A stretch of DNA of 5,206 nucleotides from a virus (Duplodnaviria; Heunggongvirae; Uroviricota; Caudoviricetes). The notes under the pieces are model-generated. The model was not told where the DNA came from. It worked only from the letters and a program-made list of their open reading frames with translations, and made no database searches. The stretch covers positions 1-5,206 of IMG/VR virus record IMGVR_UViG_2740892423_000010. One strand, 5' to 3'. Shown in pieces: positions 1-5,206 of this stretch. Made by a program: the position numbers and the translations under genes. The stretch's first letter is position 1, and each line of letters opens with the position of its first letter.

Positions 1-87
1 CTCACTGAAGCTGAGAGCTTCTTCGCCTTCGGCAAGGCCTTCGAAGTATTCTTCGTAAGCCTTTTCCATGATTGTGTCGAAATCCAT
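1..87 (-). CDS. Partial small acidic hypothetical protein (start at 87, runs off left edge of window); translation begins MDFDTIMEKAYEEYFEGLAEGEEALSFSE
   Basis: Open frame on minus strand from ATG at 87..85 through position 1 with no stop. The ATG lies 1 nt after the upstream gene's TGA (TGATATG), suggesting coupled translation. Position matches a ydfB-like gene after ydfA in Qin-type prophages, but identity is not confirmed. Confidence 0.4.
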   Translation of the reverse strand, partial: MDFDTIMEKAYEEYFEGLAEGEEALSFSE

Positions 88-88
88 A

Positions 89-244
89 TCACTCGCCTGA
101 ATTTCTTTCCAGCCAGCGACGAGCGCCAGTTTCGGTTTTAAACGTTTTGCTTTTGGTATACGTCATCGCGGTGAATGTGCCGTCCTGGTTGGGAAACACG
201 CCGTATACCAGAGATTCGTTGTTGCCAAGATCGATAGTATCCAT
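89..244 (-). CDS. ydfA: Small phage protein, YdfA-like (51 aa: MDTIDLGNNESLVYGVFPNQDGTFTAMTYTKSKTFKTETGARRWLERNSGE)
   Basis: Minus-strand ORF ending with TGA at 91..89. I prefer the internal ATG at 244 because it is preceded by a GAGG Shine-Dalgarno about 5 nt upstream and gives a 51-aa product that matches my recollection of E. coli Qin-prophage YdfA. The ORF track's longer version starts at 322 (77 aa). Confidence 0.55.
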   Translation of the reverse strand: MDTIDLGNNESLVYGVFPNQDGTFTAMTYTKSKTFKTETGARRWLERNSGE

Positions 245-420
245 GTTGACCTCATTTCCCCTTAACGCCGGGGGAGCGGAACAAAAACCTGCTGCATAGT
301 TAAAGTTGAACCCTGCCGTCATGTTCTTACGCCTCGGGCTGGCTACTTATCCCCTGACCACTGCCTGGTAACTCGAGGTATTGCCCTGCGTTCTGTGGGG
401 CGGGGTGGGTTGGTGGAAAT

Positions 421-464
421 AATCTACAATTAAAAACTGTTTTGTGTCAACAGTTTTTAATTGT
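421..464 (-). promoter_or_regulatory. Operator-overlapping promoter for the ydfA-like operon: palindrome ACAATTAAAAACTGT-N9-ACAGTTTTTAATTGT (426..464) with minus-strand -35 TTGACA (450..445) and -10 TAGATT (426..421)
   Basis: Perfect 15-bp inverted repeat with 9-bp spacer read directly from sequence. On the minus strand the spacer contains a consensus TTGACA, followed 18 nt later by TAGATT. Near-identical to the palindrome at 1462..1500. Confidence 0.55.
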
Positions 465-473
465 TGGGCTGGG

Positions 474-501
474 TAAAAAAAACTCCCTCGAATGAGGGAG
501 T
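474..501 (-). terminator. Rho-independent terminator ending the repressor-antitoxin-toxin operon
   Basis: On the minus strand: GC-rich hairpin ACTCCCTC-ATTC-GAGGGAGT (501..482) followed by a run of 8 T (plus-strand A-run 475..482), placed 17 nt after the toxin stop at 518. Confidence 0.6.
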
Positions 502-517
502 ATGAAAATTGTTCAGT

Positions 518-805
518 TCAGATAGGGAAGGGAAATTGTCGGCGGGCATGCACAATATTTGCAATTTCAATGCTTGAAGCTGCTACTCGGTACAAAACGA
601 TATAATTAGGGTGAACCACAATTTCCCGCAAACCGGATACTCGATCACTTGGCGGATATAGATATGGATGCTCGGAGAGGGCTAAAACAGACGTTTCAAT
701 ACGTATTTTTAGTCTGCGTGCTGCAGGAATATTTTCCTTAGCAATATAGGCTACGATCTGACGCAAATCATCGCGAGCAGATGGTAGCCATAAAATGGGT
801 AACAT
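518..805 (-). CDS. parE: ParE/RelE-family type II toxin (95 aa)
   Basis: Translation has the ParE-like pattern (N-terminal DL..I..YI helix region, C-terminal YRV...I.I..I.HARR). Its ATG overlaps the upstream antitoxin stop by 1 nt (TAATG on minus strand), typical of toxin-antitoxin coupling. Confidence 0.88.
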   Translation of the reverse strand: MLPILWLPSARDDLRQIVAYIAKENIPAARRLKIRIETSVLALSEHPYLYPPSDRVSGLREIVVHPNYIVLYRVAASSIEIANIVHARRQFPFPI

Positions 806-996
806 TACTCGCTCCTGTTAGTTACAGCAATTTGAGCAATAAGATTTTCTATTTCAGCCATTACCTCGTCATGTGGAATTGAGGGACGAGGGTCTGCAAG
901 GCTTGACGCCACTTTAGCGCGCAACCATTCGTTGTAACTGTTTTCTTGTTCGGTAGTTTCGAATTCTGAAACTATCGGAGAAAGGGCTGTACTCAT
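805..996 (-). CDS. paaA: Small antitoxin, PaaA-like (ParE-associated antitoxin), 63 aa
   Basis: 63-aa ORF directly upstream of and overlapping the toxin start. Strong RBS (GAGGAG, about 7 nt spacing). N-terminal half (ALSP.VSEFET.EQENSYNEWLRAKVA.SLADPRP.IPHDEV) matches my recollection of PaaA2 from E. coli O157:H7; family assignment is not search-verified. Confidence 0.8.
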   Translation of the reverse strand: MSTALSPIVSEFETTEQENSYNEWLRAKVASSLADPRPSIPHDEVMAEIENLIAQIAVTNRSE

Positions 997-1023
997 GGCA
1001 TAACTCCTCTTCTTGTACAGTGG

Positions 1024-1425
1024 TCATGCCCGGCGGCTTTTTTGTGCCGCCAACCACCGGGCAATGGTTTCTTCCATTGATTTTTTCTTGTCTTTGATTT
1101 CTTGAAGCATTTTTTCTTGGTCTTCCTCTGGAAACGCACTAAAAGCCTGGAGCAGTTCGCGTTGGCGAGGGCCAATTTTCATCGTGTCAGGGGTGAAAAT
1201 TTGCTCCCCCTCTTCAGGAGGCAATAAAAACCAATGCAATGGATGCCCTGTAACCTCAACCAGTTTATCCAAACTTGAGGCTTTAGGTGTAGCCTTACCG
1301 CTGACCCATTGTTGAACAGTTTGTTGTGTCACACCAATTCTACGGGCCAGCTCAGCCTGGCTCCATCCAGTTTCCTGAAGAAGCTTGCTGATTCTGTACA
1401 TAGATACTTCTAGAGCGTTCATCAT
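1024..1425 (-). CDS. paaR: HTH XRE-family phage repressor, DicA/PaaR-type (CI analogue), 133 aa
   Basis: Helix-turn-helix motif (WSQAELARRIGVTQQTVQQWVSG) plus a C-terminal segment (ELLQAFSAFPEEDQEKMLQEI) resembling DicA-type repressors. Divergent from a Cro-like gene and co-oriented with the antitoxin/toxin. No SD before the ATG at 1425, but a TAAAAT -10 sits 6 nt upstream, suggesting a leaderless mRNA. Alternative in-frame start at 1401 (MYRISK...). Confidence 0.85.
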   Translation of the reverse strand: MMNALEVSMYRISKLLQETGWSQAELARRIGVTQQTVQQWVSGKATPKASSLDKLVEVTGHPLHWFLLPPEEGEQIFTPDTMKIGPRQRELLQAFSAFPEEDQEKMLQEIKDKKKSMEETIARWLAAQKSRRA

Positions 1426-1534
1426 TATTCAATTTTACAGGTAAATACTGTTAAAAGCATCACAATAAAAAACTGTTGATCGCGTACAGTTTTTTATTGT
1501 AGGCTTTGCCTGTAGTTTTTTAGAGGAGGGCAAA
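1426..1534. promoter_or_regulatory. Divergent immunity control region: operator palindrome ACAATAAAAAACTGT-N9-ACAGTTTTTTATTGT (1462..1500), candidate plus-strand promoter for the Cro-like gene (-35 TTGATC 1476..1481, -10 TAGGCT 1500..1505), candidate minus-strand repressor promoter (-10 TAAAAT = plus 1432..1437)
   Basis: Perfect 15-bp inverted repeat with 9-bp spacer read from sequence. Promoter hexamers are by-eye matches to sigma70 consensus. The plus-strand promoter and operator have the same geometry as the 421..464 unit. Strong RBS AGAGGAGGG (1522..1530) before the ATG at 1535. Possible degenerate half-site TGTAGTTTTTTAG at 1511..1523. Confidence 0.6.
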
Positions 1535-1807
1535 ATGCTAGATAGCACTCGCGAAAAAATTAGGCAGAAATACACTCAAGCTGAAATAGGTCGTTATATG
1601 GGGGTCGCTCAACAGACTGTTTGGCAATGGTTTAGCTTTGGTGTTCCCCCAAAGCAGGTAATTCCGTTATGTCAGCTAATGAAGTGGGAAGTTACCCCGC
1701 ATGAAATTCGCCCTGATATTTATCCTAACCCAACCGACGGGCTGCCTTGTGGAAATAAGTGTATGGCGAATGAATCTCTGGCGGTGAACAATGAAAATCA
1801 CCCCTGA
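1535..1807 (+). CDS. ydaS: Cro-like HTH regulator, YdaS family (90 aa)
   Basis: Strong RBS. HTH motif (AEIGRYMGVAQQTVWQW) followed by a VTPHEIRPDIYPNPTDG segment that I recognise as characteristic of YdaS-type Cro analogues. Divergent from the repressor gene. Confidence 0.85.
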   Translation: MLDSTREKIRQKYTQAEIGRYMGVAQQTVWQWFSFGVPPKQVIPLCQLMKWEVTPHEIRPDIYPNPTDGLPCGNKCMANESLAVNNENHP

Positions 1808-2342
1808 ACAGGTTCGTGAGGCTCTGGATGCCTGGGTATGCCGACCAGGAATGACACAGGAGCAGGCGACGATATTAATCACGGAAGCATTCTGGGCTCT
1901 GAAAAAACGCCCGAACATTGATGTTCAACGCGTCACGTTTGATGATGGCGCGGTTGATCAACGGGCGCTGGGCGTTAACCGGGTGAAGATATTCGAACGC
2001 TGGAAAGCTATCGACACCAGGGATAAGCGTGAAAAATTCACGGCGCTGATTCCGGCAATTATGGAGGCTATCCGGATCAGCGATTTCAGGTTGTATTGTG
2101 AAATTACTGACGGAAAAAGCATTACGTACATGATCGCCGGGTTAAACAAAGAATATGGCGATGTGGTGGAGTCCGGGCTGCTTTTTGCGGATCCAGCTGT
2201 TGTGGAACGTGAGACTGACGAGCTTATAGAAAAAGCTATTGCTTTCAAGCACGCGTATCGTCAGCAATACCAATATTACTTTGCAGATAAACAAATATCT
2301 GTCTGGGGTTCGTATGAGTATCGATGCACTACGATGGGCTAA
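1791..2342 (+). CDS. ydaT: YdaT-like protein (CII-analogue candidate), 183 aa
   Basis: ATG at 1791 overlaps the ydaS-like 3' end by 17 nt (coupled translation). Position immediately after a YdaS-type Cro matches the ydaS-ydaT pair of Rac/CP-933-type prophages. Family assignment rests on position and recalled similarity, not a search. Confidence 0.7.
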   Translation: MKITPEQVREALDAWVCRPGMTQEQATILITEAFWALKKRPNIDVQRVTFDDGAVDQRALGVNRVKIFERWKAIDTRDKREKFTALIPAIMEAIRISDFRLYCEITDGKSITYMIAGLNKEYGDVVESGLLFADPAVVERETDELIEKAIAFKHAYRQQYQYYFADKQISVWGSYEYRCTTMG

Positions 2343-3354
2343 AAAGGTGAAAACCGGCAGTTCATCCAGTAAGTCAGTATTGACCTGGCTTGCTGATATG
2401 TGCGGTGCCGATTTGTGTGCATACCCGTCTGTATCTGCCCTGGCAGAAGTAACGGAACTGAACAAAAAGACTGTGCAGGACAGCTTACGACACCTGATGG
2501 AGATTGGGTTAATTGTTGATACCGGTGAGAGAAAAGGCAGAACAAAGCAAATTGTGGTGTACCGACTTATCGGTGTAGAAGAAAGTGTTGCCGAGCCTGA
2601 ATACACCCAAAAACGGGAGTCTTTAAAGGTGGGTAAAATTGGTGCTGTTAATAAAAACAGTACCGAAAACGGTTATGTTTCAGCACAAAACAGACCCAAA
2701 AACGGAACTCTTAACTGCATGGAAAATAACCAAAGACACCCAAATTTTCCATTAAAGACACCCAAAAACGGATCACGGAACCCAAAGGAACCCAAAGATC
2801 TAAACCCCACACATAACGCACGCGAGAGTGCTCCGACCAGTGAGCAGGAAGTTTTGTCGTTACAGGCAGTGCCACCCGTATTCCTGGATGGCCTGAGCGA
2901 ACCCATCGGAAAATTTCCGATGACCGATAGCTGGCATCCGTCACGGGATTTTCGACGACGGGCTGCGTTGTGGGGGATGGCTTTGTCGGAGCCGGAATTT
3001 ACACCTGCTGAACTTGCCGCATTCCGGGATTACTGGAGCGATGAGGGCAAAGTGTTCACGCAGGTTCAGTGGGAGCAGAAATTCGCCCGTCACGTAAATC
3101 ACGTCAGGGCGCAGGTTAAACCAGTCAGCAAGGGGGTAAACCATGCAGCAGCACCAGGTGGCACCGCATCACGGGCAGTTCAGGAAATTCGGGCAGCACG
3201 TGAGCAGTGGGAACGTGAAAACGGATTTATCAGCGACGGAAACGGCGTGGAAGCTGTGGGAACTCATGGGGGAGGTTTATTCGAACCGCTGGACCCAGAA
3301 GAACGGGGCCGCACCTTCGAAGCTCTGGATTGCACAGATTGGCGCGATGACTGA
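2314..3354 (+). CDS. Replication initiator (lambda O functional analogue): N-terminal winged-helix domain plus C-terminal DnaT-like domain, 346 aa from ATG 2314
   Basis: N-terminus (LRWAKKV...SVSALAEVTELNKKTVQDSLRHLMEIGLI) resembles replication-initiator wHTH domains. C-terminal segment GKFPMTDSWHPSRDFRRRAALWGMALSEPEFTPAELAAFRDYWSDEGKVFTQVQWEQKFAR closely resembles the C-terminal region of E. coli primosomal protein DnaT as I recall it. The ORF track starts at a TTG (2239); I prefer ATG 2314, which has a GGGG SD-like element 5 nt upstream. Confidence 0.8.
   Translation: MSIDALRWAKKVKTGSSSSKSVLTWLADMCGADLCAYPSVSALAEVTELNKKTVQDSLRHLMEIGLIVDTGERKGRTKQIVVYRLIGVEESVAEPEYTQKRESLKVGKIGAVNKNSTENGYVSAQNRPKNGTLNCMENNQRHPNFPLKTPKNGSRNPKEPKDLNPTHNARESAPTSEQEVLSLQAVPPVFLDGLSEPIGKFPMTDSWHPSRDFRRRAALWGMALSEPEFTPAELAAFRDYWSDEGKVFTQVQWEQKFARHVNHVRAQVKPVSKGVNHAAAPGGTASRAVQEIRAAREQWERENGFISDGNGVEAVGTHGGGLFEPLDPEERGRTFEALDCTDWRDD
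2603..2799. repeat. Iteron-like direct repeats (consensus about GACACCCAAAAACGG) inside the initiator gene linker; candidate origin of replication
   Basis: Direct repeats read from sequence: ACACCCAAAAACGG 2603..2616, AGACCCAAAAACGG 2692..2705, GACACCCAAA 2735..2744, GACACCCAAAAACGG 2757..2771, GGAACCCAAAG 2778..2788 and 2788..2798, with a degenerate copy ACCGAAAACGG at 2662..2672. Several start-to-start spacings are about 22 bp or multiples. They encode a low-complexity PKNG-rich linker between the two protein domains. Confidence 0.5.
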
Positions 3355-3808
3355 GCAGCAAATCCGTCAGGTCTGCCGCCAGTGCATGGACCGCTGCCGG
3401 ACGGGTGAAACATGGCCTCCGGACCTGGCTGAGTTTGTGGCGCTGATTTCGGAGAGTGGGGCAAATCCATTTGGTCTGACGGTGGATGCTGTGATGGAGG
3501 AGTACCGCCGCTGGCGCAATGAGTCTTGGCGATACGACGGAAGTGATAAGTACCCGTGGTCTCAGCCTGTGCTGTATCACATTTGCCTCGAGATGCGTTC
3601 AAAGGGGATTGAGCGCCAGATGACCGAAGGGGAATTAAAACGGCTTGCAGAACGGCAACTGACGAAATGGGCAAAGCATGTTGGTAACGGACTGAGTGTT
3701 CCACCCGTCCGTAGGCAACTGGCAGCACCCATACGTCCTGCGGGACCAACGCCAATTGAGTTGCTGAAACAGGAATATGAACGCAGGAAAGCGGCTGGTT
3801 TTGTTTGA
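3143..3808 (+). CDS. Lambda P-like replication protein (helicase loader), 221 aa
   Basis: Strong SD (AGGGGG 3131..3136, 6 nt before ATG 3143). Translation ([14 protein letters not shown] ... [15 protein letters not shown] ... [10 protein letters not shown]) parallels lambda P as I recall it (PFLPSPGQFVAWCRE ... YPWKSNAHYWLVTNL ... ELRRKAADEL). Overlaps the 3' end of the initiator gene by 212 nt in a different frame. Confidence 0.8.
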
Positions 3809-3842
3809 GTTGAGAAGTAATTTTTACCGGGAGGAAATTTTA

Positions 3843-4613
3843 ATGGAAACCGTTTTTGATGCACTGAAAGCAATGGGAAAAGCCACGTCGGTGGAACTGG
3901 CCGCGCGACTTGATATCAGTCGTGAAGAAGTGCTGAACGAGCTGTGGGAACTCAAAAGAAATGGCGTCGTTGATAAAACAGGTCATACCTGGTTTCTGGC
4001 TGGTGAAGGTGAATCCGGGGTAACCGAAGAGCAGCCAGTACAATCTGAAGCACCGGATGTGCTAACCGGGGTGGGCGAACAAAAAGTTACCGCTGACATG
4101 ATGATTGAGTTTATCGGTCAGGAGGGGGCTAAAACGTGTGAGGAACTGGCGAGTAAGTTCGGTGTCAGCACTCGCAAGGTTGCTTCCACGCTGGCGGTAG
4201 TAACCGCAACGGGGAGGCTGGCACGCGTTAATCAGAACGGTAAATTTCGTTACTGCATACCGGGCGATAATTTACCAGCAGAACCGAAAGCCGCATTGGT
4301 AGCGGAAACTGATGGTAAATCCTTTCCTCAGCCAGCGGGGGTTGCGTTACCAGTACAGGAGGTTGCAACACAGGAAGATATTAAAACAGAAACTGTGGCG
4401 GACATTGTGCAGTCGTTGCCATCGTTCACTGAAACGCGAGCCAATGGCCTGATTTTACCATCTCTGCATATGGCAAACCGCGAACTTCGCCGGGCGAAAA
4501 GTCATGTCCAGAAGTGGGAGCGAGTCTGCGCCGCGCTGCGGGAGCTGAACAAGCACCGGGATATTGTCCGACAGATTGTCGATTCCTCCAGTCGTATTGT
4601 GTCGGAAAAGTGA
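3843..4613 (+). CDS. Hypothetical phage protein with two tandem winged-helix-like modules and a basic C-terminal helix, 257 aa
   Basis: Strong RBS (GGGAGG 3830..3835, 7 nt before ATG 3843); the ORF track's upstream ATG at 3777 has no usable SD and overlaps the P-like stop. Two internally similar wHTH-like segments ([30 protein letters not shown] and [30 protein letters not shown]). Function unknown. Confidence 0.7.
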
Positions 4614-4629
4614 TTCCAGGGGAGGGCTT

Positions 4630-5052
4630 ATGGCAAAAGTATCTACACAGGAAGAGCGGGAAAAAATTAAAGGGCAGGTTGTTGAACTCGTACGCCAGAG
4701 TGGGCGTGAGACGTTACGACAACTGGAAGCGAAAACAGGTGCGACAAGATATCTGATGAGCGTTCTCGCCAGAGAGCTGGTTGCCAGTGGCGATGTATAC
4801 AACTCTGGTTACGGGTTATTTCCGTCTGAACAGGCGCGTAAGGACTGGCAAAACGCCCGCAAAAAACTCTCAAGGGCAAAGGTGAAGAAAACGGCTGTGG
4901 TTGATCCGGACCTTATCAGGTCATTACCTGACGGAGAAATACGCCGCTACGACAGGCGTCAAAACATAATTTGCCGTGAGTGCCGGAAAAGCGAAGTTAT
5001 GCAGCGTGTACTGGCGTTTTATCGGGGAAACTTTCAGGAGGTGATGCTGTGA
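4630..5052 (+). CDS. Hypothetical phage protein with one winged-helix-like module, 141 aa
   Basis: Strong RBS (AGGGGAGGG 4618..4626) before ATG 4630; the ORF track's TTG at 4564 overlaps the previous gene. Segment ETLRQLEAKTGATRYLMSVLARELVASGDV resembles the wHTH modules of the upstream gene. Basic, Lys/Arg-rich C-terminal half. Confidence 0.65.
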   Translation: MAKVSTQEEREKIKGQVVELVRQSGRETLRQLEAKTGATRYLMSVLARELVASGDVYNSGYGLFPSEQARKDWQNARKKLSRAKVKKTAVVDPDLIRSLPDGEIRRYDRRQNIICRECRKSEVMQRVLAFYRGNFQEVML

Positions 5053-5206
5053 GCGAATCAAAATGTCAGGTTAATAGCAATCAGATAGAACCATGTGCGG
5101 TACTGGCAAAAGCCCTTGAGCATGATGCTGAATACACGACGCGAAAAGGTCTGCTGATATACAAAATCTGGAATGAGAGTTTAACTCGCGGCCCTGATTT
5201 GGTGAT
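5049..5206 (+). CDS. Partial hypothetical CDS (candidate GTG start at 5049, runs off right edge); VSESKCQVNSNQIEPCAVLAKALEHDAEYTTRKGLLIYKIWNESLTRGPDLV...
   Basis: Open frame to the window end. GTG overlaps the upstream stop (GTGA) and is preceded by AGGAGG (5036..5041). No family recognised. Confidence 0.3.
   Translation, partial: MSESKCQVNSNQIEPCAVLAKALEHDAEYTTRKGLLIYKIWNESLTRGPDLV

Follow-up and report, generated by a model that had tools for sequence, protein, structure and literature searches.

A repeat array inside the replication initiator gene as the probable origin of a Rac/CP-933P-like lambdoid prophage of Escherichia coli

Where does replication start in a lambdoid prophage for whose replication module public annotation gives no origin? 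The question is raised by the early region of a Rac/CP-933P-like prophage of Escherichia coli, contained in a stretch of 5,206 nucleotides (IMG/VR virus record IMGVR_UViG_2740892423_000010, positions 1 to 5,206; hereafter the window), in which an array of short repeats (iterons) lies within the replication initiator gene. Our comparative analysis of the sequence indicates that 2601-2807 is very probably the replication origin of the prophage, or the initiator-binding core of it, placed inside the initiator gene in the manner of phage lambda. The repeats exist, are constrained as DNA, keep their position in the gene and change in sequence together with the N-terminal domain (N-domain) of the initiator, and the two halves of the gene have been swapped as modules. 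The gene and its array are made up as follows, with matrix scores referring to a weight matrix trained on relatives only:

2314-3354, plus strand: replication initiator gene, an open reading frame (ORF) of 346 amino acids (aa) with winged-helix N-domain, repeat-encoded linker and DnaT-like C-terminal domain (C-domain)
2314-2598, plus strand: winged-helix N-domain (aa 1-95), presumed to bind the iterons
2601-2622, plus strand: iteron 1, ATACACCCAAAAACGGGAGTCT (27.1 bits; exact 14-mer)
2623-2656, plus strand: A/T-rich spacer between iterons 1 and 2 (the 30-bp stretch 2633-2662 is one of the window's eight least stable)
2657-2678, plus strand: iteron 2, degenerate, ACAGTACCGAAAACGGTTATGT (23.6 bits; also a repeat family in repeat finding)
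2690-2711, plus strand: iteron 3, ACAGACCCAAAAACGGAACTCT (28.3 bits; one mismatch to the 14-mer)
2734-2755, plus strand: variant ('type B') copy, AGACACCCAAATTTTCC (from repeat finding; 22 bp ahead of the last iteron)
2756-2777, plus strand: iteron 4, AGACACCCAAAAACGGATCACG (20.0 bits; exact 14-mer)
2777-2807, plus strand: tail, GGAACCCAAA in tandem x2.1 (2777-2797), then GATCTAAACCCC (Tandem Repeats Finder; position-matched comparison with 30 loci)
2914-3114, plus strand: DnaT-like C-domain (aa 201-267; Pfam DnaT PF17948, 63.8 bits, cut-off 25)

Exact copies of the 14-mer ACACCCAAAAACGG stand at 2603 and 2758 and a third copy, at 2692, has a single mismatch; repeat finding added a degenerate copy at 2659 (GTACCGAAAACGG) and a half or variant copy at 2736 (ACACCCAAATTTTCC). 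The weight matrix, trained on the relatives' copies with the window excluded (full copies of 18-22 bp), identified four window sites at 20-28 bits (2601, 2657, 2690 and 2756), the next-best site on either strand of the 5.2 kb reaching 8 bits; a rebuilt matrix recovered the same four. Within the initiator gene 28 pairs of 12-mers differ by no more than one base, compared with a mean of 1.7 and a maximum of 14 in dinucleotide shuffles (n=300) and a mean of 3.7 and a maximum of 13 in synonymous-codon permutations that preserve the protein (n=300); 2590-2810 alone holds 26 pairs (shuffle mean 0.5, maximum 12; n=1000). Start-to-start spacings are 56, 33, 44 and 22 bp, each at most 1 bp off a multiple of 11. 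The original prediction, made from the window's letters, of a repeat array inside the initiator gene is thereby confirmed by exact matches, the relatives-only matrix and shuffles. Its count of at least four copies holds when the degenerate copy at 2659 is included, only three lying within one mismatch of the 14-mer, and its spacing of 22 bp or multiples stands. Tandem Repeats Finder reports only the 10-mer pair at 2777-2797, because the iterons are interspersed and not head to tail.

Homologous loci were sought with the N-domain alone (aa 1-95), so that the hits are free of linker bias. In viral contigs this search returned near-identical E. coli copies only, and the diversity came from an alignment-based scan of genome contigs, which in species-representative genomes yielded 26 loci with 77% to 32% identity from Enterobacterales, Plesiomonas, Serratia, Acinetobacter, Cupriavidus, Reinekea, Sulfuricella, Desulfovibrionaceae, Roseibium, Methylococcaceae and others. 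About 30 homologous loci were compared in all (N-domain identity 80% to 32%; each about 3.2 kb, up to 5.4 kb; labelled here by L numbers); a protein homologue search gave short or partial proteins only (175 aa or less), and the spectrum of C-terminal regions was taken from the loci. Close relatives in Klebsiella and other enterics (74-80% identity) retain five to seven copies of CCCAAAAACGGGA. By an unbiased scan of repeat density, 27 of 31 loci, L083, L084, L085 and L087 included, have their repeat-densest 200 bp beginning 220-320 bp into the gene, the four exceptions being two truncated and two distant loci. The same layout is found in the genuine phages phiV10, Bcep176 (gp11), Vibrio phage Her (Her_0038) and Acinetobacter phage AP22 (ORF76), and the phage relatives have Escherichia, Acinetobacter, Vibrio, Burkholderia, Edwardsiella and Moraxella as hosts. 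phiV10 p43 combines HTH_36 and DnaT and is followed by a P-like gene, and AP22 ORF76 is followed by a putative replicative DNA helicase.

The sequence of the repeat unit changes with the N-domain. Every locus with an N-domain of at least 39% identity has one to six copies by the enteric-type matrix, as does Vibrio phage Her (37%); the same matrix finds no copies in nine loci at 32-37% identity and almost none outside arrays. At that place the nine loci carry other units (among them GTGTCACCCTGACAC, GGTAGTCTCACCATGAGAC, GCGCCCCCGAA, ACCAGTCGGGAAAAC and GGGAAAAGCATACC), which keep spacings of 17-18 and 22-24 bp. All loci with CCAAAAACGG-type units have xKT(V/I) opening the recognition helix and, except for L104, share the long wing DTGERKGRTKQ; the other loci differ in both. 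The unit type follows the recognition helix and largely the wing, which is the pattern expected of cognate sites of the N-domain, though not proof of binding. The relatives' iterons read GATCCCAAAAACGGGATC or GTCCCAAAAACGGGAC, with one copy of changed centre near the right end (CCCAAATTTGGG, CCCAATTTTGG or CCCGTTTTTTCC); at the position of window 2734 this variant is CCCAATTTTGG in L084, L093 and L094, and CCCGTTTTTTCC or ACCGTTTTTCCC in L083, L087 and L089-L092.

The reading frame, by comparison, is not what is kept. In the window the 8-mer ACACCCAA lies in codon phases 1, 2 and 0 and is read as YTQKRE, RPKNGT/TPKNGS and RHPNFP; since the iteron copies stand in different codon phases, the repeat is one of DNA and not of peptide. 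Of 28 loci, 26 have copies in two or more codon phases, and the repeats are intact in L084, L085/L086 (two independent metagenomes), L087 and L106 although the frame breaks inside their array. The PKNG-rich peptide is, as had been proposed, the translation of the repeats. Loss of the repeats with retention of the linker, named beforehand as the outcome that would speak against an origin, turned out reversed: the repeats are kept as DNA, and the peptide changes frame or breaks.

The array is also a frameshift hotspot, and many public proteins of the family stop inside or just past it. In E. coli 2013C-3277 (L120) a 10-bp tail unit is deleted at 1163-1172 (corresponding to window 2777-2786); the deletion splits the gene into an annotated helix-turn-helix (HTH) protein and a DnaT-like pseudogene, and two of the iteron CGG cores are mutated.

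After the variable iterons, most loci examined carry a second element, a tail of two to four tandem copies (period about 12) of the canonical unit GAAYCTAYCAAT. With at most one mismatch, 44 copies lie at +330 to +560 compared with 14 in all other sequence, both strands (about 95-fold enrichment); the tail stands at about +360 to +480 from the gene start in L089-L114 and is also present in L121-L179. It occurs in all three codon phases, being read ESTN in some lineages and NLP in others, and is kept as DNA across Alpha-, Beta- and Gammaproteobacteria and Desulfovibrio-like hosts where the adjoining iterons have diverged beyond recognition; in several lineages an A/T run or a C-run/G-run palindrome follows it. 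Degenerate tails are present in the window at 2773-2807 (an GGAACCCAAAG pair plus GATCTAAAC), in phiV10 (AACCAGTCATAT) and in Bcep176 (GGAACAGTAG). The canonical tail matrix found no tail in ori-lambda, where the best hit of L119 (9.8 bits) is upstream of gene O, and none in the window array; lambda therefore has no such tail, and that of the window is degenerate. By eye, the tail fits none of the DnaA-box, IHF and oriC 13-mer consensus sequences.

Because the tail unit is constant while the iterons and the C-domain vary, it may be the constant core of these origins. We put forward tentatively, and with more doubt than confidence, that it is the common core of this class of phage origin, independent of initiator specificity, and serves as the site of DNA opening or helicase loading; either the N-domain, through a conserved surface, or a conserved host factor could recognise it. 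If this were true, the tail would be a portable signature for locating origins in thousands of prophages, and these origins would follow a two-part grammar of variable address and constant core.

A reverse search from the DNA, with two exact tail units as query against IMG/VR contigs, returned 59 contigs, 47 of them with an N-domain homologue at most 750 nt upstream (E 1e-35 to 9e-10). In nine of the 59 (L129, L139, L145, L147, L149, L154 at about 1510-1640, L171, L174 and L179) iterons and tail lie together in an AT-rich, apparently non-coding stretch without an initiator gene beside them, the iterons being in both orientations. L154 carries two arrays of the same type, one intergenic and one normally intragenic about 12 kb away. 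Such detached arrays could act as second origins, serve for titration or be decoys. The non-coding array of L154 adjoins a divergent TIR-like ORF.

GATC (Dam) sites overlap several iterons and the tail in Klebsiella/Kluyvera-type arrays (L083, L087 and L091; GATCCCAAAAACGGGATCC). The window retains only two, at 2771 and 2797, and a Dam methylase is encoded nearby in some related phages (L084, Her and AP22). Dam methylation may influence binding of the initiator.

The protein that would read these sites has a single winged helix (aa 1-88), after which come a disordered linker and the DnaT-like domain. AlphaFold predicted the winged helix of the N-domain confidently (predicted local distance difference test score, pLDDT, 89) and the residues beyond 95 as disordered, and the solved DnaT structures 6aep, 4ou6 and 2ru8 match aa 197-271 (E 9e-20 to 2e-16). 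The iterons (2601-2777) fall within the coding sequence of the disordered linker, from aa 95 to aa 201; AlphaFold and Pfam thus agree with the earlier placement of the array between the two domains. The window N-domain scores 20.8 bits with HTH_36 (PF13730), under the cut-off of 25; the family is assigned to homologues at 31-80% identity, and phiV10, Bcep176, Her and AP22 pass the cut-off. The N-domain belongs to the HTH_36 initiator family and not to Pfam Phage_rep_O (PF04492), which gave no window hit at E<=0.01 and with which lambda O itself scores 123 bits.

Furthermore, the gene has been assembled from exchangeable parts. From residue 161 to its end, Rac-SA53 YdaU shares 87% identity with the window protein, and at the DNA level the Rac-SA53 match begins at 2794 and runs on through the P-like gene and those downstream. 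The first 160 residues of this YdaU form a DUF1376 domain, and its gene lacks an iteron cluster. The array's right edge is where the mosaic joins Rac-type ydaU. Across the family the same kind of array is followed by no fewer than four kinds of C-terminal region: DnaT-like, Phg_2220_C and two that match nothing in Pfam. The N-domain and the repeats form one module and the C-domain and the loader another, which is classical lambdoid logic. In lambdoid hybrids the N-terminal half is swapped together with the repeats as a specificity module, and the C-terminal half stays with P.

The mechanism that we propose is modelled on lambda O and ori-lambda. Transcription of the early-right operon (YdaS/Cro-like, YdaT/cII-like, initiator and P-like genes) would supply the initiator, whose N-terminal winged helix would bind four or five phased repeats, with the core CCCAAAAACGG and an A5 tract in each and spacings in multiples of about 11 bp, and wrap them into a nucleoprotein complex. 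The DNA would open nearby, either in the A/T-rich interior of the array or in the short tandem tail, and the DnaT-like C-domain, co-inherited with the P-like gene, would recruit the P-like loader and host DnaB. Within the gene, DNA stability is lowest in the array interior (2623-2656 and 2706-2755), at about 2 standard deviations below the mean, and the spacer 2623-2656 is a possible easily melted stretch; close relatives, which lack this spacer, have iterons 18-26 bp apart there. By analogy, the array would work like ori-lambda, and the plan of an origin within the initiator gene is itself classical; the claim is for that reason confirmatory, not surprising.

Several observations weigh against an origin at 2601-2807. 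The window has no lambda-like 40-bp AT-rich block to the right of the array, its intergenic promoter regions are even less stable than the array interior, and it has no tail match with at most one mismatch, its own tail being the degenerate form. Dyad symmetry, clear in the units of relatives (GATCCCAAAAACGGGATC, GTCCCAAATTTGGGAC and GTGTCACCCTGACAC), is weak or partial in the window's own copies (ACCC...GGGA/GGAA/GGAT). The lambda iterons do not score with the window-family matrix (maximum 6.7 bits), a BLASTP comparison of the window initiator with lambda O gave nothing, and hhalign against lambda O gave a probability of 4%, the aligned stretch being the HTH-wing region. Many of the E. coli copies are in cryptic or decaying prophages, and the window's copy may therefore no longer fire. 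The literature searched holds no binding or origin-activity experiment on this initiator family; the papers searched on the replication regions of Stx phages (Eru typing) mention no iterons or origin for these modules, and a literature search with the repeat sequences gave unrelated primers only. Against these points stand the results described above: the original lambdoid-style reading is supported, and everything it led one to expect that could be computed was found, apart from the AT-rich block and the dyads in the window.

The explanation that survives best next to an origin, though an improbable one, is that the repeats are initiator-binding sites for regulation only (autoregulation, copy control, titration or handcuffing, or exclusion of related phages), with opening and loading elsewhere. 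It would account for the missing strong AT-rich unwinding block beside the window array and for the second array, intergenic and far from the gene, in some phages (L154); given such second arrays, the arrays may have roles besides initiation. Ectopic ori copies are reported to interfere with lambda replication (PMC4488673, PMC3349717). The rest of the 5.2 kb, however, contains no other repeat cluster or matrix hit, and in relatives the conserved tail and the A/T runs or palindromes downstream of it resemble the rest of an origin. In lambda, the well-studied analogue, the iterons inside O are the origin according to its annotation.

Far less probable still is binding of the repeats by another protein (the YdaT/cII-like activator, PaaR2, the Cro-like YdaS or a host factor), for example at an internal promoter for the P-like gene. 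Lambda cII does act at direct repeats inside genes, and the window's PaaR2-type operators also hold an A5-6 tract (ACAAT[T/A]AAAAACTGT palindromes). Those operator palindromes nevertheless differ in sequence and reach about 0.8 bits with the iteron matrix. A scan of 2200-3500 found no promoter-like or terminator-like site, so that an internal promoter is unlikely. The array, moreover, accompanies the N-domain where the annotated neighbours include no gene named YdaT, PaaR2 or YdaS (AP22, Bcep176 and Her), and its sequence changes with the N-domain.

It is scarcely to be believed that the DNA repeats are a by-product of a low-complexity PKNG-type linker selected as protein. The motif xPKNG does occur twice in frame (RPKNG at aa 127-131 and TPKNG at aa 149-153), and 53% of the spacings between neighbouring copies in the family are divisible by 3, compared with 33% by chance. 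The unit is nonetheless read in three phases in the window, protein-preserving synonymous permutation removes most of the signal, arrays persist across stop codons and in non-coding DNA, and the tail motif is read differently by lineage; the frame analysis has already largely refuted this explanation. Equally hard to credit is an array that is chiefly an evolutionary or genetic switch (a recombination linker between N- and C-modules, or a slippage site toggling full-length and N-domain-only protein), for although the mosaic junction at its right edge, the four or more C-terminal kinds after the same tail and the frequent frameshifted or split genes, such as that of E. coli 2013C-3277, would suit it, it leaves the tracking of unit and helix and the non-coding arrays unexplained, most finished genomes keep one intact ORF, and split copies with mutated CGG cores look like decay.

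Around the putative origin, the window has the gene order of a prophage early region:

518-805, minus strand: ParE toxin gene
805-996, minus strand: PaaA2 antitoxin gene
1024-1425, minus strand: HTH repressor gene
1535-1807, plus strand: YdaS/Cro-like gene
1791-2342, plus strand: YdaT/cII-like gene
3143 or 3347 (RefSeq start) to 3808, plus strand: lambda-P-family helicase-loader gene (by Pfam)

RefSeq names the initiator 'DnaT-like ssDNA-binding domain-containing protein' and the P-like gene product 'replication protein P'; a DUF1627 gene and a DUF977/LygF gene, also on the plus strand, lie downstream of the latter. Phage_lambda_P (PF06992) matches the P-like ORF with 60.8 bits (cut-off 26; E=1.8e-16), and the alignment begins at residue 56 of the 221-aa ORF, 13 codons (39 nt) before the start that RefSeq gives (3347). 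Starting with an ATG at 3143, which lies 212 nt into the initiator gene and in a different frame, the P-like frame is open throughout, and those enteric relatives whose gene is complete (L089-L092) have overlapping open frames of equal length; the two genes may overlap over a long out-of-frame stretch.

The genes for ParE, PaaA2 and the HTH regulator (518-1425, minus strand) fill the cI position of the immunity region, and this block matches the paaR2-paaA2-parE2 arrangement known from CP-933P (PMC8630535). It is flanked by two perfect palindromes of related sequence, at 426-464 and 1462-1500 (ACAATTAAAAACTGTT / AACAGTTTTTAATTGT and ACAATAAAAAACTGT / ACAGTTTTTTATTGT), which probably serve the PaaR2-like repressor as its left and right operators. 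An Rfam scan of the whole window gave no family match.

Of 5426 complete E. coli genomes, 907 carry the segment 2314-2830, comprising N-domain and array, at no less than 95% identity, O157:H7 among them; a match to LC567818 is via its PPompW prophage part. The module is thus a common one, and a located origin would provide a testable handle on prophage replication after induction, with relevance to prophage-encoded virulence and to toxin-antitoxin loci such as the adjoining paaR2-paaA2-parE2. What replication specialists would find new is the conserved tail, together with the non-coding arrays that stand apart from the gene.

Among known systems, iteron plasmids (RepA/RepE/pi/TrfA) have direct iterons of about 17-22 bp. 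Their Rep proteins have a WH1-WH2 pair, whereas the window has a single winged helix, coding repeats and a P-like loader; an iteron-plasmid Rep protein was rejected on account of the one winged helix. In Bacillus phage SPP1, whose initiator is G38P, oriL lies inside gene 38 and oriR is intergenic, and P4 has ori and crr. These phages resemble the window family in having initiator-binding repeats in the initiator gene and, as in some members of the family (L154), a second non-coding copy; their proteins and repeats are unrelated to those of the window, which itself has no second array.

Rac, for which an active origin, oriJ, has been reported (PMC3945230), shares with the window the DnaT-like C-domain of its YdaU/YdaV and the downstream genes. 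Rac YdaU differs in its DUF1376 N-domain and is without these repeats, so oriJ cannot be the window's array, and that identification was rejected.

Lambda is the closest in plan. Its four iterons of 18-19 bp, 20-24 bp apart, lie inside gene O between the N-terminal DNA-binding part and the C-terminal part and are followed by gene P, just as a P-family gene follows the array in the window. According to its annotation, the lambda iterons are ATCCCTCAAAACGAGGGA (x3, variants) and one ATCCCTCAAATTGGGGGA. Both families follow a dyad plan of CCC, A-tract and GGG with a spacing of about 20-24 bp, and in both each array has one copy of changed centre, with AAATT in lambda and AAATTTT in the window; in the window family the arms of the iterons lie 3 bp nearer to each other. 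They differ in the C-domain (Phg_2220_C in lambda, DnaT-like in the window) and to the right of the array, where lambda has a 40-bp AT-rich block and the window a short tandem tail instead. The N-terminus of lambda O has been reported as HTH_36-like by HHpred, and its C-terminus as Phg_2220_C (Brezellec et al. 2017, PMC5509034); BLASTP and hhalign did not reproduce the HTH_36 relation here.

The same study described DopC of Cellvibrionales and Oceanospirillales, a domesticated, chromosomal and vertically inherited protein with HTH_36 and DnaT_C encoded beside the P-like DopE, and its authors found no iteron-like sequences (PMC5509034), as would be expected if the repeats serve a phage origin only. 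In domain architecture and P-family neighbour DopC is identical to the window gene. Unlike chromosomal DopC, however, the window gene has repressor, Cro-like and cII-like genes for neighbours in the early operon of a prophage and contains a full array, and on these grounds it was rejected as a DopC. With the DopC architecture and the repeats kept, the window gene looks like the phage-type (ancestor) form, and the window would supply the phage-type counterpart of the domesticated DopC/DopE helicase-loading pair.

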